The notes: generated by a model from the letters alone, not told the origin. Counted from the first letter of the whole stretch, positions 3,119 through 61,055 are shown. The stretch: 63,746 nt of DNA, filler included, from Rhabdomonas costata (GCA_019059605.1; 41 parts of 41 records of this genome joined end to end with filler, not necessarily neighbours in it), one strand, 5' to 3'. Numbers and translations are program-made.

Positions 3119-3224
3119 TTGAACAATCAAGGTTTTGGCCCCCCTTCCCCCCTTATCAATGTTGGGTAAGACCGTTTTGCTAACCAACATTGATAAATGA
3201 GGGGGGGAGGGGGGGGTTGTTCAA
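3119..3224. repeat. Imperfect fold-back element (small MITE-like palindrome)
   Basis: TTGAACAA..C-tract..TTATCAATGTTGG / CCAACATTGATAA..G-tract..TTGTTCAA. The arms are diverged, unlike the perfect end fold-backs. Confidence 0.55.
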
Positions 3225-3269
3225 TTCCATTATGGAAAACGTTGTTTGGTCCGTTGGTGGGTCATGTAG

Positions 3270-3440
3270 TGTGTCTGCGGTGCACGAAGCACGACAGGTG
3301 GTAATACGAGAGGCAAAGAATGGCAGAGAAGCTTCTGCTTAATGCAACAAGAAAAGAGTGAACAGTGACAGGCTGAGTTGGTGCGTGTATATATTTGCAA
3401 GTGATGTGTTTGCATTGTGTGAAAGAGGGTGGTGATGATG
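3270..3440 (-). repeat. Dispersed repeat, copy 1 (homologous to 59678-59825)
   Basis: The reverse complement shares CAATGCAA..ACTTGCAAAT.TATACACGCAC..CCTGTCACTG..AGAAGCTTCTCTGCCATT.TTTGCCTCTCGTATTACCACCTGTCG with contig 39. Confidence 0.85.
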
Positions 3441-4677
3441 ATTTGGGGGGGGAAGACCTGGTGGGGGTGGGGCCAGAGTTGCCTTCAGCCTGACGCCTTA
3501 GCGAGACCAGCCTGGGAGATTATGATATGGATTCGAGCCGACTTCGGTTCCTGACAGTATCCGCACTAGTGTTTACCCCTTACACCCAACTCAGTGTGTC
3601 TATATGTTTTGTGCGGATAATAGGTTCACCTGGTAACCCCGAATCAGGAGAGTCGGGAAGGTGGGTGGCCGGTCATTCCACCACTGGCTGAGCTCGGAAA
3701 AGAGCTCATAAAAAACTGTTGGTCAGCCGGAGGCTCGCACGAAGTCGCTCGGAAGACTTGCCAGTGTCGCACAAAGACCAGTTTTCTGTGCCCGCGTGCA
3801 CTCAAAGCAAGACTTGGTAACTGGAGGATCTCACTGGAGGACCTCGTCCACCTTGGCCTGTTGTCCTGACACCTTATTTTTCCACTACTTGCACTCACAG
3901 CAACCCACACCGCTCAAACTTGAAACCCAGGGGACTTGGTAAGATGCTGGAGGACAGGCATTGTCCAGATAACATCGTCGGCTGTGTTGCCGCGCGGGAA
4001 AAGTTGCGCTGCGCATCTATCGGCAAGGCCGTCGGTTACCACCAGTGTACCAGTAATACCTCAGTTTGAATGTACCCAAACTTTCTGCCACTACTGCGGC
4101 CAGTGTTCTGTAATTGGACTGCACATCGAGCCCCACAACCACCACCACCGGAGTACAGGAGCATACCGAACCGGCGGGAGCGCCTAGAATCACCGACAAC
4201 CTGAACCTTCCAACCTTCAGCAAACTCGCTCATCTCGCTCATCCAATAGAGCTTCTTCCAACATCACTCCAGCTCAGATAACATTTTTTCTGCGCTCATA
4301 TCTGCAGCACCCCCCCAAGAATGCTATGTCCAAAACGAAAAAGAGGCCCCTCCCTCCCCGCGGAGAGCGTCTCTGCGTTTGTCTCATTTTCACCGTCCCT
4401 GCTTATTTTTCTCAGGTGGGGCCAGTCGGGATACATTTACGTTCAGTACGGCTCGAACTGCAACGGAATCGCGAACAATGCCGGCACTGCTGTGGTTGTG
4501 TAAAATGAAAAGCCAGCAGTGGCTTACCTCACACCCTTCCCCTCACCACTACCTCCCGTCTTGATTGCTGGTCTGTTNNNNNNNNNNNNNNNNNNNNNNN
4601 NNNNNNNNNNNNNNNNNNNNNTTAATTAATTAANNNNNNNNNNNNNNNNNNNNNNNNNNNNNNNNNNNNNNNNNNNN

Positions 4678-7049: not shown

Positions 7050-7601
7050 TTTCTTGGGCTTCTCACTCCCGTTGCTGAGGAAACCAAGGATCTCGTTCTG
7101 CAGGTCCGAATCATGGGCTCTTCTCCGTTCTCCTTCTTTTTCCTGCATGCACCACTATTGCTGGTCTTTCCAGTTCTGTAGATTTCATGTTTCAGTTCTT
7201 TTCTCGCCCATTTTCCCCAAAAAGAAAACTGACTTTTTGGGGAAAACGTCAGTTGCACGTCGGAGCTGTGAATTGGTGAACTGGAAATTTTCTGTAAAGC
7301 GCAACTCCGAAAAGTTCTCGTCTCCTTCGCAGTGGGCGGAGAGAAATCTGTCGTGCCCAGAAAAGCATTTCCACCCTGGGCCAACGAACTCCGTTTCCCC
7401 TTTGAACTAATGGAACCTCGGGACATACTGGGGTTATTATTTCACACCGCAGGTGCTGTGCGTGTTGTACAGCTGTCTACCTGGTGGGGACGCGGGGGGC
7501 AGCGTCGACCCCAACCCTCTGCTGACGCAAATCGCCTGCATTGCCACCATTACGACGGTTTGCACCGTCCTTGGTGCGGTCATCACCGCGGGCCCCCAAA
7601 G
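7050..7601 (+). CDS. Partial spliced gene, hypothetical protein with a hydrophobic segment
   Basis: AG/GT-bounded exons FLGLLTPVAEETKDLVLQ (~7050-7102) and VLCVLYSCLPGG..LLTQIACIATITTVCTVLGAVITAGPQ (7453-7601). Confidence 0.4.
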
Positions 7602-10260: not shown

Positions 10261-11149
10261 GTTTTTGTTTGGGTGTATGTGCTGCCACAGCCGCACTTTC
10301 CGACTTGTGTGCATATGGAGGGGGCGCAGCCAGGAAATCAGAGTCTTGAGGAGTTTCGGCTATAGGGGCCCTGGAATACAATGTTCCTTGCTGGCAGATT
10401 GGCCTGGCCTGTGGGTGGGGCCCTTTGGCCGGATAGGGTGCCTTTCCCCCGGTAGTTCCCGTCTAGCCCTCGAATTCAGGCCAAGCAATGAGATTGTGAC
10501 ACACACAGCGACCCGGGGGTCCCGCACAACCCCTGTGCCTCAGCCAATCTTTCGGGAACCAGTGTATTGAAGACCGACAGACAGGCCAACCGCATCCCCC
10601 AAGAAAATCCTGAGTTCCTAGGGGTCCGGGGCAACTACCCACCAGCACACCAAGTCCACCACAAACGTACGCGGCACTGCACCGAAGACTGATGACAGCT
10701 CAATCGTATTGCTATATTTTTCTTCCGAAAATCCTCACCGGGTTCCTGGACAACTATCCACCAGTATCCTCGCTCCACCCCCACCCAAACACACCCCCCA
10801 CACCCAACACANNNNNNNNNNNNNNNNNNNNNNNNNNNNNNNNNNNNNNNNNNNNTTAATTAATTAANNNNNNNNNNNNNNNNNNNNNNNNNNNNNNNNN
10901 NNNNNNNNNNNTTTGGTCGCACTTTAATTCAGTTATGCAATACATACAGCTTTTTGGCCCTTGGAGATGGTCAATGGTGGTTGCCGTGATGTGTCTTAAG
11001 TATCTCTCAGAAGAGGCGCGCGACCTGCGAGATGAATTAGAGCCACGTGCAAATGTTCCCTAGTATTCCCATGTTTGGGACTGTCCAGCGCGCGCACAAA
11101 GGGACTTACTCGACTGGGTGAGTAAGTGAGTGAGTGAGCGTCGTGAGGA

Positions 11150-15430: not shown

Positions 15431-17399
15431 ATCCCAGCCGTACCTGCGTATGACGTATTCCAAATGGCTGGATGGCCAACCAACCCNNNNNNNNNNNNNN
15501 NNNNNNNNNNNNNNNNNNNNNNNNNNNNNNTTAATTAATTAANNNNNNNNNNNNNNNNNNNNNNNNNNNNNNNNNNNNNNNNNNNNCTTGACGCAATAAT
15601 TGCTTGACAGAGCACCTTTGAACTGTTTTTTATCTCACTGTGGTCGGCCTTCTGGAAACCTAATGTTGAGCGCTTGAAGAAGGAGCATCGAAGTGGTGCT
15701 GGGGGAAAGGAGCAACACTTGTATTATCATTGGTAATTCAGGGGGCACTATAGGAACTTGTCGATGTTGTGGTTGAGCGTGAACCCAGGGCTGCAGACAA
15801 TACTCGCAGTGATTCGTGAAAAACGTGAAATAAAAAACCGAACGCTAGCGTTTCGGCAGCGAAATAACGGAAGCTGACTGTTTTGAATTTTGAAGCTTGG
15901 TTCTGAAAGGCACGTCTTGCAAGGCGAATCATGGTGAATCATGCTTCTCTGTCCATGGTGTCCTTCCTTCCCAGTTTTTTTGAATTTTTAATAGTACTGC
16001 CTTCCTATTGGCCACTTGTTGCATTTTTGAAGATACCATGGCATTGTTTTTTCCTTACAGGACGAATACTCGCGGGACCCCATGGTTAGATTCCGGTTCC
16101 GGATATCGCTTGTTACATCGCCAGCTCAATTCTGCTACTTCTGCTGTAGCGCTACTGCCTGCAGCCTATCTCGCTGCGTCTTTTCTTCAAACAAGGCTGT
16201 TTTCTCTTCTCATTTTTCTTTCAGGATGAGATCGTCGGCACCCCGGACTCCAGTTCCAGGGTGAGATTTCGTTCCAGAAATTCCGTTTTCTCGTTCGAAG
16301 CCCTATCGAGCCGCGCCGATTCCGATGCCCTCTACCCGAGTCTCTCCACGTATACCGGTGGTGCTGCCGATGACGCAAGAGATGAGGAGATGCAGACCAC
16401 CCCAGGTGCTGGTGTACATAGACCCTGCGGTTTTGTGGGGTACTACCCCGTTGCCTTTAGCTGTCTTTACTCGACACACACACACACACACACACGCAAA
16501 CAAACATGGCGTCATCTCCTGCTGCCTCCTCTGTCCTGTTTAAGTTGTGGCACCTCCATTCCAACTGCTGGGGTTGGTTGGCTTCAGATTTCCCAGAAGC
16601 AATGCCCGACTCCACGTTTGCGCAGTTGAATGCCACAGATTTCAGGGTGAATTGGGACCCTTAGCTTAGATGAATGTTTAAATTCTACTGGAAGCTCCTT
16701 CCCTGAGTGTGTCGTCTGTGTATGGGCATTGATCTCTGAATTGGTGTTTTCCATTTATTGGAGCTGACTCTTTTCGAAAAGGTGTTCGGGATGTCCGCTG
16801 TTACCGGTTGTTACCGGCTGCATCTATTCAGATTCGGGAGAAAAAGTCTTCCCGAGCACGGCGCTCGGTGCGCGCACAAGATCTCGTCCTAGATCGCTGC
16901 TGCAAATGAGCAGACTCCTGCTTCGCCCAGAAGGCAGGCCAGCATAAACAACAACACTGTCTTTGCTATCGCAGAGACAGAGGGCAAGTAGGCAGCCTGT
17001 GCACCCCTCCCCCCTCCATTCGACGTTGGCCGTCCACACCCACANNNNNNNNNNNNNNNNNNNNNNNNNNNNNNNNNNNNNNNNNNNNTTAATTAATTAA
17101 NNNNNNNNNNNNNNNNNNNNNNNNNNNNNNNNNNNNNNNNNNNNGGTGTGGTGGGTCGAGGGTCGAGAGTGTTGGTTGAGAGGGGTGTGGGTCGAAGCGT
17201 AGGGTGTGGTGTCGGAAGGTGAGGGTTCATGGTGGAGGGTTGGAGGGTGACGGAGTGGAGTGATGCGTAGGGTGTGGAGGGTTGGAGGTGTGGAGGTGTG
17301 TGGCTCTTTGGGTCTTTGGATCTTTGGGTTCCGCCTTCGTTTCTGGTGTCGGTGTCGGGGTTCTGTCTCTGTCTCTGTCTCGGATTCGCGTATGTCCCT

Positions 17400-17560
17400 C
17401 GGGATCTCCAACGTTGGAAATCCAACATCGCCCGCAGAACCAAGGGCAAAAGCTACTCCAGGGACAACAGCCTGTAAGGTGCAACGACGACACGCACGGA
17501 CGAATACTACGACGAGTGACTCGCATGACCAGTACCACACGTGAGCATATCCGATGTGCA
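17400..17560 (+). rRNA. Candidate highly divergent organellar LSU rRNA fragment (domain V, peptidyl-transferase region)
   Basis: 17448-17474 AAAAGCTACTCCAGGGACAACAGCCTG vs E. coli 23S AAAAGGTACTCCGGGGATAACAGGCTG. It is preceded by TGGAA..CATCGC..CAA and followed by CGATGT (17552-17557), in 23S order. Confidence 0.45.
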
Positions 17561-20500
17561 AAGTTGTGTCATTGGCGTCATCTCAGAGAGCAATCAGCGA
17601 TGCTGGAACCAACTCCTAACCGTACCACGAGTACACATGCGATACCTGACGTATCTGGGCGTCAGATGAAGACCTAGTGATGGATGCTAGGCTATTGCAT
17701 AAACCCACAGACGGTGACGCCAAGGCAGTGAGGGACCGGTAACACACACTACTCAACCTCATACGCTAGCGGTGGATCCTGATGGAGGTGAGCTGTCCAG
17801 GTTAACCACGCGTAGTGGCAATGACTGACAGCCTACAGTGGTTGGGTGCCCGCATAGTTAGTGGTGAAGGATACGGCTATGTGAACAACGTGCAGTCGTG
17901 GTGACAGTAACGCTACGTTCATGCGATGCACTACCCTAGTGGTACGGTACACACACCAACCGTAGAGCAGTAGGTAAGACATCCGCGTAGAAGGACCACC
18001 ATGACCACGTGTAGGAGGATGTTGCTGCGTGTCAAAGGTAGGTTGAAAACCTACGCGTAAGATGTACAGTTAGGGTATGCCTTCGCTCCATCTCACTCGC
18101 CAACTACTCAACCACAGAACCACACCGCAATCCCCACAACGTCACCACCACCACAGAAACAGAGGGAGGGTAAGGATGACGGTGGAAGGAGAGACAGAGC
18201 GTGTGATGGAAGTGGTATGCTGATGGTGGCCGCTGCAGCCAGAGGGAACAAGAACACCTTAAGTTCCCTGAAGCGATGCATTTAGGGATGAGAGAGGCCA
18301 CCCTTAAGCAAGAGAAAGAGGAAGAGGACGTAAGGGATGATGTTACGTCGTCAATCCACCACCCTAGGGTGCTTCCGTTCCTCCTCACTCCATGGTCGCA
18401 TGCTCGGTACCTCGCATGCTCCAACTCAACCCCTCACTCAGACGTTGTCACTCCCCACCTAAGGTGTTACGTGACTCCACCTCCTGACGCACCCTCGAGG
18501 AGGATGAGCTTAGCGACGAGTGTGACGACTGTAATAAGGAGGAAAGTAGCGAACATCGTGAGCGGAGTTACGACAGAAGGAACAGGAGGAACAGGAGGGN
18601 NNNNNNNNNNNNNNNNNNNNNNNNNNNNNNNNNNNNNNNNNNNTTAATTAATTAANNNNNNNNNNNNNNNNNNNNNNNNNNNNNNNNNNNNNNNNNNNNG
18701 GGGGGGTGTGGTGCTACTACTCCTGAGTTGCGTTTATTGAACACTTGTAAGCCTCTGGCTGCATCTTTACGCCGACTATGGCATCTTGAAGGGTCCACTT
18801 GGGCCGTGTTTCTTGGGCGTACCCGGATTTCCAAGGGTATGGGAGGGGTGAGCTTTACGGCCCTTGGAAGGCTTGAATAATGAGCTTTAGCTTTCGGCTG
18901 GAGCTCCACAGCATGCCACAAGGCACGCCCAGTAGTACCTCACGCTGACACCGGAATGGGCCGTATGCTTGGGTTTACAGTGCCCTACTGGCCCTTTTGT
19001 GCGTTGCTGGCACCGGAGTGTTGTCCGGAATGCTTCGGCTTGCAACTGCCCCTCAGGCAAACGCCGCACCCCTCAGAGTGAGGAATTCCTCCAATCACAA
19101 AGCACCTTCTGATTCCGACAATGTTTTTTGGAATCGGAGGTCATTTTGCACATTGCAGTTCTGTTCTTTTCCTGTTTCCATTTTTTTGTCGCCGGGATTA
19201 GGTCACTGAGTGCAACCACAGGCACAGGGAGAGGGGAGGGAAGCGGGAGCCCCGGAGGAGAACCTGCACTTGTACGACACTTGCAGGTGCTGGTCCGCGG
19301 AAATGGAGTAGCGGCGGAAGTTCAGGTAGGTCATGATAATCACCTGAGAGCACGAAGGGGGGGACCCCAACCGCCGCAAAGCAAACGAACCGGGGCGGCC
19401 GAAGTTAACGCAATTCTCACACTAAAAGCCAAAAAAGGCAGCACTTAAAGCCCGGCTCCAGAATGCGGAGCGGTTCTCCAAGTTAATCAAAAGCGCTCAG
19501 GAGCTGTGAGGTGTGTGTGTGATAGGATTGACAGCGCATTTCAGGGAGTACCCTAAACCAGTGCACTCTGAGTTGCGTGGACTGAAATCGCAGGAAAGCA
19601 AAAAGGACATCAGTTAGTTTTTGTTTTTGAAAGCGAGGTAGTTTCAGTCTTGACTTCAATGGGATTTTTGAGCAAGGTAAGCTACATCCCGAAACTCAGA
19701 ATTAAGTATGAGTTACGAGTTTCCAATTGAAGGCTTGTATGTATACAAACGAAATGTTTTGAACGTTTTCATGCTACTGAGGCTATATATAAAAGCGTGT
19801 TTTCTGAGTTAACGGTGTAACATCGCGACCGATTCTTTATGGTTGCACCGGCATCAATACCGTCGGGGTCGGGAAGAGACAGCTTACTTACGGGTCACGG
19901 GAATCGGACACCAGAGAACAGCCATCCGAGCCCCTCCGCCCGCCCCTGAGGTTGCCGAGACGGCCAAGCGACAGAAGGACGAGACGCAGAGTGAGGCAGC
20001 CCAGGAGGAGGGAAGGGACAGACAACGGCAGCGCAAAAATGTTGTTGGTGTTTACTGTCGTCTTTTCCGATAGTGTTCGCTGTCATGTCTTTCTGGCATC
20101 CCAAATTCGACGACCCCATTGATGCCAAATCCCACCAAGGACAAGTCCACTCGGTACNNNNNNNNNNNNNNNNNNNNNNNNNNNNNNNNNNNNNNNNNNN
20201 NTTAATTAATTAANNNNNNNNNNNNNNNNNNNNNNNNNNNNNNNNNNNNNNNNNNNNGCCGTGACAGGGGTGGGTGGGGTGCTTGGATAACGGCTGCAGG
20301 TGTTGGAACCGTGTAACTCCGGAACAACACAAATGTCCCGTTATGCTGATTTGTCGATCTATTGATTTTTATAATCGAAAAAAAGATTTGTCGAAATTTT
20401 GTTGAAAAAACTCCAAACAGTATAAACAGAGTCCTTGATATCAGCCCGTGCCAATCCGACTGGTGCAAGACAGCCCCTGTGTTGGCTTTGTTCTGGACCT

Positions 20501-30302: not shown

Positions 30303-30566
30303 CTGTCTCACAACAGGGAGCACAGGGGCCAGCCGCTCCTGCTCCTGGGCCTCCGTGAGTGCCGTTGACCCCGGCGCAGTGCTCTCCGCACCGATGTCCA
30401 CCACGTCGGCACCAGCCTCAAACAGCGCCTGCAGAGCACCCCGCAGTGCATTAGTGGTAACCACCGTCTGATAGGCACTTCCGGTCCGCTCTGCGAGCCA
30501 ACCGTCCCCCGAGAAGCTGTCCGGGGTCATGTTGAGCACCCCAACAACCTTGACATCCCGACTCAT
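30303..30566 (-). CDS. folP: Dihydropteroate synthase, N-terminal exon
   Basis: MSRDVKVVGVLNMTPDSFSGDG..AGADVVDIGAESTAPGS..EQERLAPVL, followed by a CAG/GTGGGA donor. Confidence 0.92.
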
Positions 30567-37100: not shown

Positions 37101-38027
37101 AACAAACTTGACCCCATTTCGCTAAGCCCCGTGCCGAGAAAATGACTTTTTTGAGGAATTTTTTTTTCGCGTTTAACGCCGTTAAACAGCAAAAGTCAAA
37201 GCAAAAGTTCCTCAAAAAAGTCATTTTCTCGGCACGGGGCTTAGCGAAATGGGGTCAAGTTTGTTCTACTGCTCCCCCAAAACNNNNNNNNNNNNNNNNN
37301 NNNNNNNNNNNNNNNNNNNNNNNNNNNTTAATTAATTAANNNNNNNNNNNNNNNNNNNNNNNNNNNNNNNNNNNNNNNNNNNNGGGGTGGTGGTGGAGAA
37401 GCTCGCGGAAACAAGCGGGGGTCGCTGAGGCGTCGACTGCAGTCATCAAAGTGTCAACAGGAAGAGAAACGCGGACCACTCACAGATAAGAAGCAGAGGA
37501 AACAGAAAAGATAAAGGGAAGACCAAGAGGCCCACACAAGTCCCTTTTCTTTTTGCCTTGCGAGGGGAGAGAAGTGAATTTCAACCAACCATGCGGTGCT
37601 TCGGGAATTTCTGTGCTGGCGGGCGATGCCTCTTACCCGCAGCACCCGTGAGCTTTGAGGGGGCGACATGTGTTCGACCGTGTTGGACTGGGGGGTTAAA
37701 AACATTGTTCTGACATCCTGGAAAGAAAGCGCGCTTGAGAAATGAGAATGGGAGGATGTGGTTATTCCGAAACGGAAAGCTAACTACAGGCAGGAAAGAT
37801 GTAACACCCTCTGTAAAACGACATACGAATGCGCACACGCAGTTCCCAGGAAATTAATGACGAAGTGGGTGCAAATTTCTCCATTGCACATAAACAAAAC
37901 AAAAATTCCAAGTTAGTATTGCACTGACTGCAGCTTCTAAACATACCAGCTCACTTTTATTCTCTGTTGGTTTCCTCACAAGACTCGGGAGACGGAATCC
38001 AGAAATTTGGCCCTTCCCGAGACACAC

Positions 38028-38306
38028 CGGCGCAGGGGGCGGGTCTTGTTGCTCCGACAAGGACGGCGAGATCGAGGCGGAGAGGAACAATCGCACCACC
38101 GGCGAGGGGTCTGTGCCCTGCCGGGATACCCACAGCAGCAGCTGGGCCCAGTCCGCGGGGTTGCGGAGGGAGATCCGGTCGCCGTCCCCGTCGGCCCATT
38201 TTAGGGAGAAGGATGTCCCCTGGGAGGCGCCCAGGTCCATGTTCGCGGCAATTTGCCGCTGCAACTCTGGGAAACTCAACGTGGTGGGAATGCTCATCAT
38301 TACCGC
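38028..38306 (-). CDS. PB1-domain protein exon
   Basis: LSFPELQRQIA..FSLKWADGDGDRISLRNPADW..VVRLFL contains the PB1 OPCA acidic motif. The 279-nt exon is bounded by CAG/GTGTGT. Confidence 0.85.
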
Positions 38307-39366
38307 CTGAACAGGAGGACACCCAGAGGAAGAAAAAGCTGAAAAAAAACGACAAGGAGGAAAACAGATACACAACACAGCACACAGACGAAAACACGTC
38401 GAGGCAAGCATACCACAAAAAAAACCAACCGTGGATCAGTAACGGACAACAATTACAGAAAATATGGGGTATGAATCAGAAGGCCACTTAAGGGCCGGGC
38501 GTGCAGGCAACGGCCACGCCCTCCCAAACAAAAAGGTCTTGCAGTCCTGCGGGCTGCGCTGAGGTCTACAGCCTGTCGTCCTTACCCAACACCGCAACAG
38601 CAGAGGGCCAATTGCAAACCCTCAACCCTCAACCCTCGTATGTGGCGGGGTTGGCGCGCCCTGTTGGTCTCTGCATTGCACCTTTGCAGGAACACACTGA
38701 TTACGCACCTGGGTTGGGCTGACCACTTTGCAGGAGATTACGCTCGGAAGCCGCAAGCCCGCAGCCTGCACAGAGGCCCCCACCGAAGAGTCCGGAGTGG
38801 ACGGATTCGATGGCAGCCGCCTTTCCGCAACTTCCACAACNNNNNNNNNNNNNNNNNNNNNNNNNNNNNNNNNNNNNNNNNNNNTTAATTAATTAANNNN
38901 NNNNNNNNNNNNNNNNNNNNNNNNNNNNNNNNNNNNNNNNTGTTGGAAGAGATGGGGAGACGTCTCCCAGCCCTGCGCTCTTTCCCTAAAAAGGAAACAC
39001 TTCTGAAAGGAGCATTCACAAGCATGCCATCAGTGCTAGCCGGGGCGGGGTGGTGTGCCGTTTCGCGTCAACCATGGTTTTGGGTGGGGGAGGACGCTCC
39101 CCCCATTCTGCCTGTTAATCCGATCAAAATATGATCCTAAGCAATGCGACTGATGATGCAGCAAGCAGGAGCATTGAAAACCACACCCCTCTCTGCGACA
39201 ACACCGCAACTTGTTCGACGACAAACACCATCATCACCACGATTGACATAAACGTTGCACCTGCAAAGCAGTGACAAGCGACATGCTACCACATCACAGA
39301 AACAGTGTACGTCTACGACTCCACTCCACTGCCCTCCCGGAGGATCAGTCACTTTTACGCCATCAC

Positions 39367-58033: not shown

Positions 58034-59677
58034 AGAGCAGCTTTTTGGTTGCTTCATTTTGCAGCTACCCTACAACCCTTACAAGGGCAACTCCCCTCTC
58101 CCCCCTCCCCTTTTCCGGCTTTTTGATCCTGCTTCAGGGTGGGCTGTGTGCATTTTTCCGGGGAGGGGGGTTACTTTTTAACGACATTTACCGGTATTGC
58201 AACGATGTACTGTATAGCGTTGTTATACGGTTAACATCGTTTTGCGGGAAAAATCTGAAACCAGACTTGAGGGTCTGCCTCCGCGAAACGCACAATAAAG
58301 AACAGCATCAGACTTTGTGTTTCTTGTTGTGTTGTTTCTTACTGGAACCACACAGTGCGGAAATGTGCTCCGGCGTTTCTCTCGGGTGTTTTTCACTTGC
58401 TCAGGCTTCGGAAAAGGAGCAAATGATTCGAGTCCTTGATTGAGGCTTTGCTGAATTTCAACCTCCCTCATCCATATGTGTGTCATCTCCCTAGAGAGAC
58501 ATGTTTACAGAGGAAACATAGCCCACCCCATCATCTCTATCGTTCATTTTGTGTCCCCTGTCTTGGCCTGCTTGGTGACGCTCACGCGAGAAACTTGTAT
58601 AGTTGTCATTTACTTGCGTTGACCTGTCTTCTATATTCCGTTTTGCTTTGGTGGGGAGGACAGAAGCTGTCTGAATTCTGATTTCACGGTCAAAATTGGG
58701 GATACGCATTTTTTTTTTCAAAAATCGCAATTCCTCTCTTCGGTAACTGATCCGGTGAGGTCGGCCCGTCCATTTGCCAACCAGTTATCAGTCCGCAGTT
58801 TGGTCGTTGCCGTGCTCGTGTTCAAGTTCAGTTAATAGCTTAGGATGGCGTTGACGTTCTTGGTGCTCACCTGGTTGTTGATTGCCGCGCCCCCTGTTTT
58901 CAATCAGTCTCGAACTTTTTTCAGAATTACGCACAGCGTCCTCTTTTTCAAGAGGTATTTTGTTTGCGAGGTTTAGCCGCACAATGGCCAGCACAGGCGA
59001 GGATGACTCCGAAGTCAGCGCAGGGGAGCGGTTGAGAGATCGGAGTCATCCTCGCCTGTGCTGGCCATTGTGCGGNNNNNNNNNNNNNNNNNNNNNNNNN
59101 NNNNNNNNNNNNNNNNNNNTTAATTAATTAANNNNNNNNNNNNNNNNNNNNNNNNNNNNNNNNNNNNNNNNNNNNGGTTCCATTTTAATCGTTGGCTTTG
59201 CTGTCGCTTGCCTTAGTGCTCTGTGGTACGCTGTGCACCCTTTTGATGGTCACCCCATTTTGTTGCCTTCAACTTTGTCTTTTTCAAGACCCTTCCTGGC
59301 CCGAATGAGCTAGAGAGAATGAGAACCACGTGGCAAAGCCACAAAAAAATTGGGTTTTCTTTTGTGTTGTATTACTTTAAGTACTCCACAAATCCGTGCG
59401 CTTTTTGATGGCGGCTCAAGCGATCCATTTCCTGTGCAAGTTACTCATACTGTTGGACCGTATCATATATATCCGCATGACGCGGTCTGTGGTACTGGTG
59501 CATACAAATACAATTTATGGGTACCAGTGCTCATCCAAGAACTCAATGAAAAAGATGCAGTATCTCCGTCCCAAACTCGAGCCCTTTTACTTGCTTTCAC
59601 CGTGCTTCCATAACGACTATTAGTTAGCTTTAATTGGTGTATAAAACTCCAAATTGTTCTCAAATTACACCCGTATT

Positions 59678-59825
59678 ATCATCACCACTCGCACAATGCA
59701 AGCACAGTACTTGCAAATTTATACACGCACTTATCCTGTCACTGCTATTTTCCTGTTGATCTCAAGAAGCTTCTCTGCCATTGTTTGCCTCTCGTATTAC
59801 CACCTGTCGGGCACTGCAGACACCA
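59678..59825 (+). repeat. Dispersed repeat, copy 2 (homologous to 3270-3440)
   Basis: See copy 1. Long near-identical blocks are shared between unrelated contigs. Confidence 0.85.
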
Positions 59826-61055
59826 CACGACCCAGAAGCCGACCAAGTGGTGAAGTTCGTGAACTGATAAACCACCAGAGGCTAGTCCTTCTACCCGTGG
59901 TAACATTTTGTATTCCCCCGTTCTTGGACGCTGGGTGAGTCCCTTTTTGACGGCTGCCCAAGCGGAAAGCCGCCACACCGGGTAACGGGATCTCCCATAC
60001 ACCAACACTATGCGGTAACGGAACTGGTGGATGTGAACCATTATCTAATTGGAGGGTATTGCAAAGTTTTACCTCGGGATAGTGTAACCCCCCACCCACC
60101 GTGACGACCGTGTTTTTTCTCGTGCTCTTCTTTGCGCAACCCTGTTCATGCTCATTTGTGTTTTTCAGGCACTCCACGCCACTGCTGCACCACCCTTGCG
60201 CGCGCGTGTGTTTCGTTGCTTGTCTTTCCGGCCTCCTACTTGCTTTTGCTTTTTGCAACCTTCCGCCAACCTGCCGCAAAGCAGCAGCCCCTGCGCGCCG
60301 CATCCTCCAGTACCATCGCCATCCAGTCAGCCCTTGGCGCCGGGACAGCCAGCCTGATGCCCCTGATGATCAAAAAGACCAGCATGCACACACCCACATG
60401 ACCACACCCACAAATGAACCCTGCACTTGTTAAGCCCCGCGCCACCTTTCAATGACTAACGGATTTCCTTGTCCATGGCCTAACACACCCAGTTTCTGAC
60501 ATTAGTCGCCCATTTTTTCGGGGCCTCCTCCGCCCCCAGCTACGGTCCTCCTAATGTAAGAAACCGATTCTTTTCCCCCTAGGATCACCACGTGCCGGAA
60601 AACACATTCTCCCATCAGCACATTAAACACCCNNNNNNNNNNNNNNNNNNNNNNNNNNNNNNNNNNNNNNNNNNNNTTAATTAATTAANNNNNNNNNNNN
60701 NNNNNNNNNNNNNNNNNNNNNNNNNNNNNNNNGGGGGTTGTGGGCCGACCCTCAACTTCCCCAATAATTTCGTTCGTGTTCAGCAGCGCGACTCTGACAT
60801 TCGGCGCGAACGTGTGTTGGCAAGGGAGATGGGAGTTGCATAACAGAACGCGGCGCTGCCAACAAGGAGGTGGACTGGAGCTGCGGAGCAGTTGTGCTGA
60901 GTACATTTCGAGTATTCACGACGAAGGAGGGAAAGTCAACCAGCAGCGAATGCAGACGAAATTTCTCCAATGGACTCAAAGCGTGTGGGCCAATGGGATG
61001 CGATACTTTTTTCTTCATTTGGGAGGGCATATGCTTGTGGTGGCTTTTGTGGCAG

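Follow-up and report, generated by a model that had tools for sequence, protein, structure and literature searches.

A conserved 56-nt core with the likeness of the A2451 strand of large-subunit rRNA on a small non-coding contig: a possible separately encoded piece of fragmented organellar rRNA

The window analysed here, a stretch of DNA of 63,746 nucleotides, is made up of 41 short contigs with N linkers between them, and the element under study is one entire contig of 1455 bp. The contig map agrees with the initial annotation that 17145-18599 is a single contig flanked by N linkers. Its parts are as follows.

17145..18599, strand not assigned: the entire contig, 1455 bp, 54.4% G+C, bounded by N/TTAATTAATTAA linkers and non-coding in appearance
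17145..17390, + strand: strand-skewed low-complexity leader, recognised by its composition and short tandem arrays
17395..17404, + strand: small hairpin UCC-CUCG-GGA, read from alignments; the core begins about 25 nt downstream
17430..17485, + strand: conserved core, the sole part common to all five metagenome contigs
17448..17474, + strand: 27-mer that shares 23 of its 27 bases with E. coli 23S 2432-2458
17486..18100, + strand: unique non-coding centre of balanced composition, where small-subunit (SSU) landmarks had been annotated
18038..18054, + strand: perfect 7-bp hairpin GTAGGTT-GAA-AACCTAC, present in the predicted fold and earlier likened to SSU h45
18100..18599, + strand: skewed low-complexity tail, C/A-rich and then purine-rich, with ACAGGAGGA repeats at its end

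The contig carries no long ORF under genetic codes 1 and 4, none of the eight ORFs that we tried belongs to a Pfam family, no tRNA was found on it, and no Rfam family of any kind matches it. There is no sequence similarity between it and the other 40 contigs of the window (~60 kb of assembly compared), and no constant region common to the 41 contigs was seen. The leader is G/T/A-rich up to about 17300, with C at about 5%, and T/G/C-rich and A-poor beyond, and it contains short tandem arrays of GGGTCGA, TGGAGGGT, TGGGTCTT and TCTGTC. Composition and repeat analysis thus bear out the skewed repeats that had been described on both sides of the centre, and the strings quoted in that description all lie where it had placed them. 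The contig's first ~12 nt are purely G/T, as at many contig ends in the window, and may be the remnant of an amplification primer. For the centre (17486..18100) we detected no relative, the five metagenome contigs introduced below not aligning past the core, and its folding signal is not significant (z of -0.92 and -0.22).

Our comparison with E. coli 23S (rrlH, from NC_000913) confirms that the 27-mer is real: 17448-17474 aligns with 2432-2458 without a gap and agrees at 23 of 27 positions, with the substitutions G2437C, G2444A, U2449C and G2455C. We take this stretch to be the 3' strand of H74, the unpaired G2447-G2454 strand that includes A2451, and the opening bases of H89. Within 2447-2454 the E. 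coli base is kept at seven of the eight positions (G2447, A2448, A2450, A2451, C2452, A2453 and G2454), position 2449 being the sole change within the unpaired strand. On a rough alignment of 98 prokaryote large-subunit (LSU) segments, the same four bases are found as C2437 in 21, A2444 in 6, C2449 in 12 and C2455 in 7. As a side remark, two of the four mismatches, A for G2444 and C for U2449, are of a kind that editing could produce, which is not evidence of editing, a reading that is unsupported here. The contig's next-best 27-mers against 23S or 16S, on either strand, score 18-20/27, the best in the other 40 contigs score 19-21/27, and when the contig is dinucleotide-shuffled, 1 shuffle in 300 attains 23/27. 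The match exceeds the contig background, yet about 0.1-0.3 such matches are expected by chance per ~60-kb window, and taken alone it is weak. By Smith-Waterman alignment LSU scores 34, whereas the best of 300 shuffles scores 31, and LSU beats 200 of 200 shuffles under three scoring schemes for the window copy and for two of its relatives, L005 and L006.

The SSU part of the initial annotation did not hold up in the same way. The landmark at 17703-17729 agrees with 16S 1394-1420 at 19 of 27 positions and the contig's best SSU 27-mer at 20 of 27, and such scores (18-20/27) are no better than those of unrelated contigs and shuffles. The hairpin at 18038-18054, likened to h45, does have a perfect stem, but there is no SSU similarity around it. 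Since the SSU landmarks are at chance level, and no SSU match was found, the proposed scrambled module of LSU and SSU parts is unsupported.

A 23-mer of the core has exact matches in five metagenome (environmental DNA) contigs of 1.1-3.9 kb, here called L002-L006, with one copy per contig, where by a rough estimate far fewer than one would be expected by chance; it has none in 185,579 prokaryote species genomes (one genome each) and none in viral contigs. Together with the window copy these give six sequences, with the core consensus GCCC-N3-GAACCAAGGGCA(A/C)AAGCTACTCCAGGGACAACAGCCTGTAAGGTGCAAC. The window copy is 96.4% identical to L002, L003 and L005 over 56 nt, 96.3% to L004 over 54 nt and 98.0% to L006 over 49 nt, and the core has identical boundaries in all six sequences. 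The flanks, in contrast, are unalignable for L003, L006 and the window and 74-78% alike among L002, L004 and L005, and the G+C content of the six contigs spans 46-64%. The LSU-like motif is therefore not noise, since it lies inside a 56-nt core that is 96-98% identical in five contigs with unrelated flanks, and conservation of this kind would be typical of an rRNA core.

Past the core, L002, L004 and L005 stay 74-78% alike for about 1 kb, with perfectly conserved blocks of 19-26 nt, which suggests that a longer functional RNA than the 56-nt piece lies there. L004 19-73 resembles L005 1280-1332 (85%), a hint that the unit may be circular or tandemly repeated in these relatives. The window copy shares 7-8-mers with the same three contigs slightly above shuffles beyond the core, but these are not collinear. 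A-poor stretches upstream of the core are also found in L003 (about 900 nt) and L004, and L005 has one downstream of its 1.1-kb region. A hairpin with a (U)UCG loop stands at a comparable upstream place in all five relatives, with a different stem sequence in each; RNAalifold gives three pairs changed on both sides, each broken in one sequence, a covariation that is weak because the stems are short. The core alone shows no special hairpin stability (z -0.84; 39 of 200 shuffles fold equally well), as one would expect if the strand found its partners on other pieces.

How far does the LSU likeness go? A profile built from L002, L004 and L005 matches 23S 2404-2458 at E=1.4e-4, with one of 200 shuffled-rRNA decoys as good; upstream of 2426 this alignment leans partly on E. 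coli-specific letters, the window copy agreeing there at only 9 of 28 positions. A profile built from 98 distinct prokaryote LSU segments finds the core in all six sequences at E 0.008-0.12, the next match having E of at least 7, and a full-length LSU profile places it at 2426-2458 in all six. This signal, LSU 2404/2426-2458, is the sole rRNA-like one in the six sequences: nhmmer gives no match for SSU, 5S or RNase P RNA at E<=100, and at the same threshold the full-length LSU profile finds no H89 3' strand, no H90-H93 and no sarcin-ricin loop. Nor did we find a consistent partner strand of H74 or H89 in cis or in the other 40 contigs. Covariance models, which had been proposed as a check, gave no match to Rfam rRNA at E<=10 on the contig, on 17395-17500 or on the five relatives, none to Rfam LSU/SSU at E<=10 on L005 1-130, and none to Rfam LSU/SSU at the gathering score in the window. 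The window copy reaches E=0.03-0.1 in nhmmer, in a search space of only 9-25 kb, and the same full-length LSU search returns an unrelated match at E=0.2 (L003, minus strand). We regard the LSU similarity as statistically modest, and the region was also chosen for study because of it. Four things are observed directly: the core is conserved, it is LSU-like, coding sequence is absent, and the neighbouring LSU helices are missing in cis.

Our best explanation, held tentatively and with somewhat less than even confidence, is that the + strand of the contig carries a separately encoded small piece of a highly divergent, fragmented organellar LSU rRNA, most likely mitochondrial. Mapped without gaps, the core falls on E. 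coli 23S ~2414-2469, which we take to cover the 3' strand of H74, the unpaired G2447-G2454 strand with A2451, and the 5' strand of H89. The gene piece would be the core of about 56 nt, perhaps with the covarying hairpin 25-50 nt upstream. The region would be transcribed and then trimmed down to the conserved piece, which could be ligated to other pieces, as in diplonemid mitochondria, or alternatively associate with them through helices formed between pieces, the arrangement of other fragmented mitochondrial rRNAs. Other DNA molecules would encode the strands that complete H74 and H89, and the surrounding skewed low-complexity DNA would be the non-coding backbone of the chromosome. Such a piece would presumably be located in the organelle, expressed and assembled into its ribosome. 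The initial annotation had suggested a fragmented, divergent organellar rRNA; the conservation of the core and its sole LSU signal fit this suggestion, while the Rfam rRNA models, giving no match, do not. Going further, it is conceivable, though we are doubtful, that an undescribed microbial eukaryote lineage, to which the amplified genome studied here and the five environmental contigs would belong, has a lone ~56-nt gene piece for the catalytic A2451 strand of its mitoribosomal LSU rRNA, sitting by itself on a repeat-rich, strand-skewed small chromosome. If this were true, even the peptidyl-transferase centre would be put together from RNA fragments encoded apart from one another, and domain V would be broken up more than in the two-module rnl of Diplonema papillatum.

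The main rival to this explanation is a core that is not rRNA at all. It is a possibility of some weight, though in our judgement an unlikely one, that the core is an unknown, deeply conserved non-rRNA element, and that it works either as a small RNA of the nucleus or an organelle or, at the DNA level, as a signal on a small chromosome rich in repeats, and that its likeness to the 23S peptidyl-transferase strand is coincidental. The chance expectation for the 27-mer given above (from 1/300 shuffles per contig and 41 contigs), nhmmer E values no better than 0.03-0.1, the lack of an Rfam rRNA match and the lack of a second rRNA motif in all six sequences all fit such an element, as does the RNA-like sequence, apparently under constraint for about 1 kb, that follows the core in L002, L004 and L005. 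Moreover, the core by eye also resembles 16S 487-549 (a likeness that, for the window copy alone, beats 199-200 of 200 shuffles at loose gap costs) and the 5' half of one listed spliced leader, so that such likenesses evidently arise easily. However, any one element of 56 nt would match LSU this well by chance with a probability of only ~1e-4 to 1e-3 (a scaled estimate), LSU is the sole match in every search and in three independent flank lineages, the positions kept are those of the unpaired catalytic strand, and known families do not match the core either. The 16S likeness would acquire a meaning of its own if the core were h18, the 530 loop, from a very small mitochondrial SSU rRNA of the diplonemid type, with the upstream G/T-rich DNA as its 5' region. 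The D. papillatum mt-SSU rRNA is described as ~366 nt long, its 5' part nearly all G/U after editing and followed by h18 (PMC3936708, PMC4889940), and the G/T-rich, A- or C-poor stretch upstream of the core is like that 5' part. We nevertheless consider this reading quite improbable. The window copy, aligned with gaps to 16S 481-550, is equalled by 0-1 of 200 shuffles under two loose scoring schemes, but L005, equalled by 34-39 of 200 shuffles, and L006, equalled by 8-19 of 200, do not pass this test, the SSU score falls below the shuffle mean under stricter scoring, and SSU is absent from the nhmmer output. The alignment also needs five gaps, to which one strand of h18 is lost, and no h44 or h45 signal follows downstream of the core.

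The core could instead derive from LSU rRNA and have taken on a new function, for example as a separate RNA that imitates the A2451 loop and is bound by a protein of the kind that binds or modifies rRNA. It can fold with the equivalent of G2447-G2454 in a loop of 8 nt that is closed by CAGG/CCUG. Of the four differences, those at 2437, 2444 and 2455 put Watson-Crick pairs in this fold where E. coli would have mismatches or wobbles, and the partner strands were not found in cis. Against this, the fold is no more stable than shuffles (the z of -0.84 above), and all 13 core pairs are invariant, so that covariation speaks neither for nor against it; we know of no precedent for such a mimic and think it improbable. 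Could the match simply be a NUMT, a decaying rRNA pseudogene, or a pure chance match in ordinary nuclear DNA? Other rRNA motifs are indeed absent, and the contig resembles repeat-rich non-coding DNA, but six copies with 96-98% identity and the same boundaries lie in contexts that are otherwise unalignable. Sharp boundaries and near-identity that recur in six such contexts point to selection rather than to neutral decay or independent insertions, and we consider all these readings, the NUMT origin that had been offered as an alternative included, highly improbable. There is, lastly, the pattern of a conserved exon in variable surroundings, which would also fit the exon of a spliced-leader RNA gene from an undescribed lineage. 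The 37 nt that begin with AACCAA and end with CAGCCT, and the GTAAGG after them, are invariant in all six sequences, as for a leader exon with a GU donor, and perfect conservation runs from about AACCAA to about 12 nt beyond the GTAAGG, with the GT inside a stem in the predicted fold. A 39-nt euglenozoan leader (Table 1 of PMC3795323) likewise begins with AACCAA and holds AAAAGCTAC, in the same order. However, the 3' half of the core is unlike all 30 leaders listed there, all of which end in G before the intron (PMC3795323). By reading, we see no Sm-type U-run in the 150 nt after the core and no T-run downstream; no 5S or snRNA was found nearby on the contig or on L002-L006, and each contig of 1.1-3.9 kb carries a single copy and no tandem array. 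The covarying hairpin sits upstream of the supposed leader start, and the shared 9-mer itself belongs to the LSU-like stretch. A peptide read through the core in one of the three + frames shared three 5-residue words with no protein in the single length band searched, 75-240 aa, of a collection of 5.8 billion clusters, which may lack transcriptomes of the right organisms. A spliced leader appears very improbable to us.

How, then, would a separate LSU rRNA piece compare with known systems? Mitochondrial rRNAs that are fragmented and assembled non-covalently occur in apicomplexans, dinoflagellates, chlorophycean algae and Euglena, and as in these the piece proposed here is small and separately encoded, with ends in helix tips: mapped without gaps, the core presumably starts near the tip of H88 and ends at that of H89. 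Such mitochondrial genomes are mostly A+T-rich, and their rRNA pieces are usually recognisable by standard models. They normally carry several pieces per DNA molecule, whereas here there is a single one. With the bacterial-type H74-A2451-H89 strand (E. coli 23S 2432-2458) the core shares 23 of 27 positions, but it differs in the four substitutions at 2437, 2444, 2449 and 2455 and in that the surrounding domain V is absent. With euglenozoan spliced-leader genes it shares a conserved block of ~37-39 nt that starts with AAC and is followed by GT, and, in the case of one leader, AACCAA and AAAAGCTAC; it is unlike them in its unrelated 3' half and in having neither an Sm-like site nor a 5S tandem array.

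Diplonemid mitochondria offer the other comparison, which we draw from published descriptions. D. papillatum holds all of domains V-VI in one 352-nt module (PMC3936708), whereas no other domain V motif lies within 1-4 kb of the core here, and the A2451 strand is not named in the authors' list of recognisable LSU motifs, in the part of that paper available, so that a classical diplonemid rnl is not an obvious fit (PMC3936708). Among the 41 contigs here, which cover about 60 kb of the assembly, we saw no constant region of the kind in which diplonemid modules are embedded. On the other hand, diplonemid rRNA genes are reported to consist of modules on separate chromosomes, up to four for rnl (PMC3936708, PMC8130358), and the mitochondrial rRNAs themselves to have about 50% G+C and to be missed by BLAST, Rfam and covariance models (PMC3936708, PMC4889940); the contig resembles them in its 54.4% G+C and its lack of an Rfam rRNA match. 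The spread of 46-64% G+C across our six contigs is like the wide spread described between diplonemid species (PMC5658414), and, as in the diplonemid rnl and rns modules so far as described, a short non-coding piece lies in unique and then repeat-rich DNA (PMC3936708, PMC7049700, PMC8130358).

Our analysis indicates that the 1455-bp contig at 17145-18599 (54.4% G+C, one complete contig between linkers) is a non-coding, skewed contig with an LSU-like RNA core that is genuine and deeply conserved, and the initial annotation, which saw in it a possible scrambled or edited mitochondrial rRNA module or a NUMT, is to that extent partly supported. All the strings quoted there are found where they were placed, and the LSU-like 27-mer with four differences is confirmed as an ungapped 23/27 match of 17448-17474 (+) to E. 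coli 23S 2432-2458, around A2451 (reference 23S and 16S taken from NC_000913). After it, the contig's best 27-mers against 23S or 16S, on either strand, score 18-20, the proposed SSU landmarks among them. The best in the other 40 contigs score 19-21, and a score of 23 arose in one of 300 dinucleotide-shuffled versions of the contig. The LSU match is thus the outlier of the window, yet chance alone should produce about 0.1-0.3 matches of this quality per window, and on its own a 23/27 match is worth little. It gains weight because the element around it is conserved in the manner of an rRNA core and keeps the same boundaries in six contexts that are otherwise unrelated. A short rRNA likeness alone stands near chance level; it is conservation in unrelated contexts that separates a real element from noise.

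An exact 23-mer from within the 27-mer is present in five metagenome contigs (L002-L006, the relatives), a count of exact-match family members, the metagenomes having been searched with the exact 23-mer only. This 23-mer does not occur among prokaryote species genomes, a 20-mer of the core does not occur in viral contigs, and a literature search with strings of the core sequence found no mention. By BLAST and alignment, the core at 17430-17485 (+) is 96.4% identical to its counterparts in L002, L003 and L005 (56 nt), 96.3% to that in L004 (54 nt) and 98.0% to that in L006 (49 nt), while the G+C of the contigs ranges from 46 to 64%. No alignment was possible between the flanks of the window copy, L003 and L006, or between these and the flanks of the other relatives; those of L002, L004 and L005 are 74-78% alike across about 0.9-1.1 kb. 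An E-INS-i alignment of the window copy, L006 and L002/L004/L005 gave no collinear conserved islands outside the core, and the 7-8-mers that the contig has in common with L002/L004/L005 (14 against a shuffle mean of 4.5; 5 against 0.8) are not collinear. All six sequences have a common architecture.

Upstream of the core: low-complexity, strand-skewed DNA poor in A, extending for about 900 nt in L003 and for no less than 250 nt in the window; in all six
25-50 nt upstream of the core: a small (U)UCG-loop hairpin, its stem differing between lineages; in all six
After the hairpin, 17430-17485 (+) in the window: the core; in all six
Downstream of the core: a compositionally balanced non-coding stretch; in all six

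Two of the relatives show the skewed DNA at length: L005 1200-3934 and L003 1-900 are kilobase stretches with 3-13% A on one strand, T/G/C-rich and with short repeats, which flank the conserved unit. L004 19-73 resembles L005 1280-1332 (85%), pointing to a possible circular or tandem arrangement of the unit in these two relatives. In L002, L004 and L005, the roughly 1 kb that follows the core contains perfectly kept blocks of 19-26 nt between variable stretches, with hairpin-like compensating changes (e.g. GCCTC...GAGG), and this region looks like a longer structured RNA, one without an Rfam match.

How good is the likeness to the LSU? In Smith-Waterman comparisons the core scores 34 against LSU, where the shuffle maximum is 31 (0/300), and 19 against SSU, under the shuffle mean. 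With three scoring schemes the LSU score exceeds all 200 of 200 shuffles for the window copy, L005 and L006; the SSU score exceeds all 200 for the window copy alone, and at loose gap costs only. A profile of L002/L004/L005 run with nhmmer --max against the E. coli rRNAs gives one match, 23S 2404-2458 (E=1.4e-4), its score being equalled by one of 200 shuffled-rRNA decoys. Conversely, an LSU segment profile built from 98 distinct prokaryote segments drawn from 116 loci matches the core in all six sequences (E 0.008-0.12; next match E>=7), and a full-length LSU profile, built from the 40 sequences retained out of 55, places the core at 2426-2458, again in 6/6 (E 0.03-0.34), with nothing besides the core save one unrelated match at E=0.2. 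For 16S, 5S and RNase P RNA there is no match at E<=100. Likeness to LSU 2426-2458 is therefore the sole one, reproducible and statistically modest. Within it, the unpaired catalytic strand retains seven of its eight positions, and the four changes fall at positions that vary among prokaryotes too. The 3' strand of H89, H90-H93 and the sarcin-ricin loop are absent within the 1.1-3.9 kb of every contig. A search by duplex energy for the partner strands of H74 and H89, in cis and in the other 40 contigs, gave none that was consistent, the top matches differing between relatives; the best candidates in the window, 7284-7307 (-) and 38668-38691, were set aside, being without rRNA-like context.

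The SSU side of the proposed LSU+SSU module is at chance level, and the LSU-like core alone stands. The downstream landmarks are at background (17703-17729 matches 16S 1394-1420 at 19/27), and we reject their SSU identity on the 27-mer counts and profile searches. The covariance-model check went against the initial annotation as well, with no Rfam rRNA match for the contig, the core or the five relatives at E<=10. At gathering score Rfam has no match anywhere in the window; at E<=10 it yields two sub-threshold miRNA look-alikes on the contig and three sub-threshold non-rRNA look-alikes on the core alone, and the relatives give no match above threshold, with sub-threshold miRNA/lncRNA noise only. 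The contig has no long frame in codes 1 and 4 and no Pfam family in the eight ORFs tried; in L005, the sole relative with ORFs listed, there was no noteworthy frame above 192 aa, and the frames were all of low complexity. Peptide look-ups across the core (minus frame and one plus frame) gave no candidate proteins, and tRNA and tmRNA are absent from the contig and the five relatives. Folding of the contig centre is ordinary against shuffles (z -0.92 on the + strand, -0.22 on the - strand), as is the core alone as a hairpin (z -0.84); for the region 17935-18075, z is -2.3 and 7 of 200 shuffles do equally well.

The make-up of the window bears on the contig ends. Its 63,746 bases comprise 41 contigs of 1440-1460 bp each, size-sorted and joined by linkers of 44 N + TTAATTAATTAA + 44 N, and most contig ends open, when read inward, with G/T-only runs (e.g. 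10785-10811, 17145-17156, 18700-18714). One end matches, with 2-3 mismatches, what we take to be a G/T-only primer of whole-genome amplification kits; a 27-nt amplification primer has no match at <=3 mismatches. Given the G/T-only ends and this primer-like end, the first ~12 bases of the 17145-18599 contig may be artefact, and the pattern suggests that the genome was amplified, possibly from a single cell, and that its contigs end in remnants of the primer. The only sizeable inter-contig repeat is a 197-nt one of 76% identity, in opposite orientation, between 3246-3442 and 59675-59846 (contigs 3119-4577 and 59176-60632). The contig at 40499-41956 has 27.5% G+C, against 47-57% in the remaining contigs, and a single open frame, 447 aa or longer, entering from its left end. 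This frame has no Pfam family at E<=0.01, and its nearest atlas clusters, which are leads only, are unnamed, some mostly giant-virus (0.91-0.92), with a Metallophos cluster at 0.87; the contig may be foreign DNA. A dihydropteroate synthase fragment lies at 30303-30566 (-) (Pterin_bind, E=3.5e-12). Within the protein collection, its best relatives reach just 40-51% identity, the sole named organism among them being a bacterium, which implies a host without a close sequenced relative in that collection. The open frame at 37854-38435 (-), whose match to the PB1 domain is weak (E=2e-4, under the Pfam cut-off), is probably a nuclear protein-coding fragment.

What, then, could the core be? Judged from sequence, it may be a separately encoded LSU piece from an undescribed lineage, perhaps diplonemid-like, in which the organellar rRNA is fragmented, a reading we hold tentatively and at somewhat less than even chances. 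By a scaled estimate, the chance of so good an LSU match for a given 56-nt element is about 1e-4 to 1e-3. The negative covariance models and the lack of a second LSU motif count against a separate LSU piece, however, and the region was picked for its LSU likeness in the first place. That the core is a conserved element unrelated to the LSU we consider unlikely, and that it derives from the LSU and now has another role, improbable. A NUMT and pure chance are both disfavoured, the conservation pattern of the core speaking against each.

Two further identities would make the core a different RNA. A spliced-leader RNA gene would accord with the 37 nt that run from AACCAA up to a GT, and with AACCAA and AAAAGCTAC, both of which also occur in a 39-nt euglenozoan leader (PMC3795323, Table 1); yet the 3' half of the core is unlike any of the 30 leaders in that table, neither an Sm-like run nor 5S nor a tandem copy was seen, and the + frame peptide (one frame) is in no protein of 75-240 aa. 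We regard this identity as highly improbable. It is attractive, too, to see in the core h18 of a tiny diplonemid-type SSU rRNA (rns), the G/T-rich DNA upstream resembling diplonemid rns as described in PMC3936708 and PMC4889940; among the six sequences, however, the window copy is the one that favours it.

If the core is not rRNA, it is a 56-nt non-coding element, with no Rfam family, that has stayed nearly unchanged across genomes of 46-64% G+C. If it is indeed a piece of LSU rRNA, it would provide a 56-nt invariant tag for locating the remaining scattered ribosome pieces, and the host organisms, in environmental data. According to four reports on diplonemids (PMC3936708, PMC4889940, PMC7049700, PMC8130358), the mitochondrial rRNAs of these organisms have about 50% G+C, their genes comprise one to four modules, carried on separate chromosomes, and genuine ones are missed by BLAST, Rfam and covariance models. 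In D. papillatum rnl, by contrast, the strand of the core is not among the motifs that these reports name as recognisable, and a single 352-nt module contains all of domains V-VI (PMC3936708, PMC4889940, PMC7049700, PMC8130358). Should the core prove to be a part of the peptidyl-transferase centre that stands alone, the mitochondrial rRNA of its lineage would be more finely broken up than in these cases.
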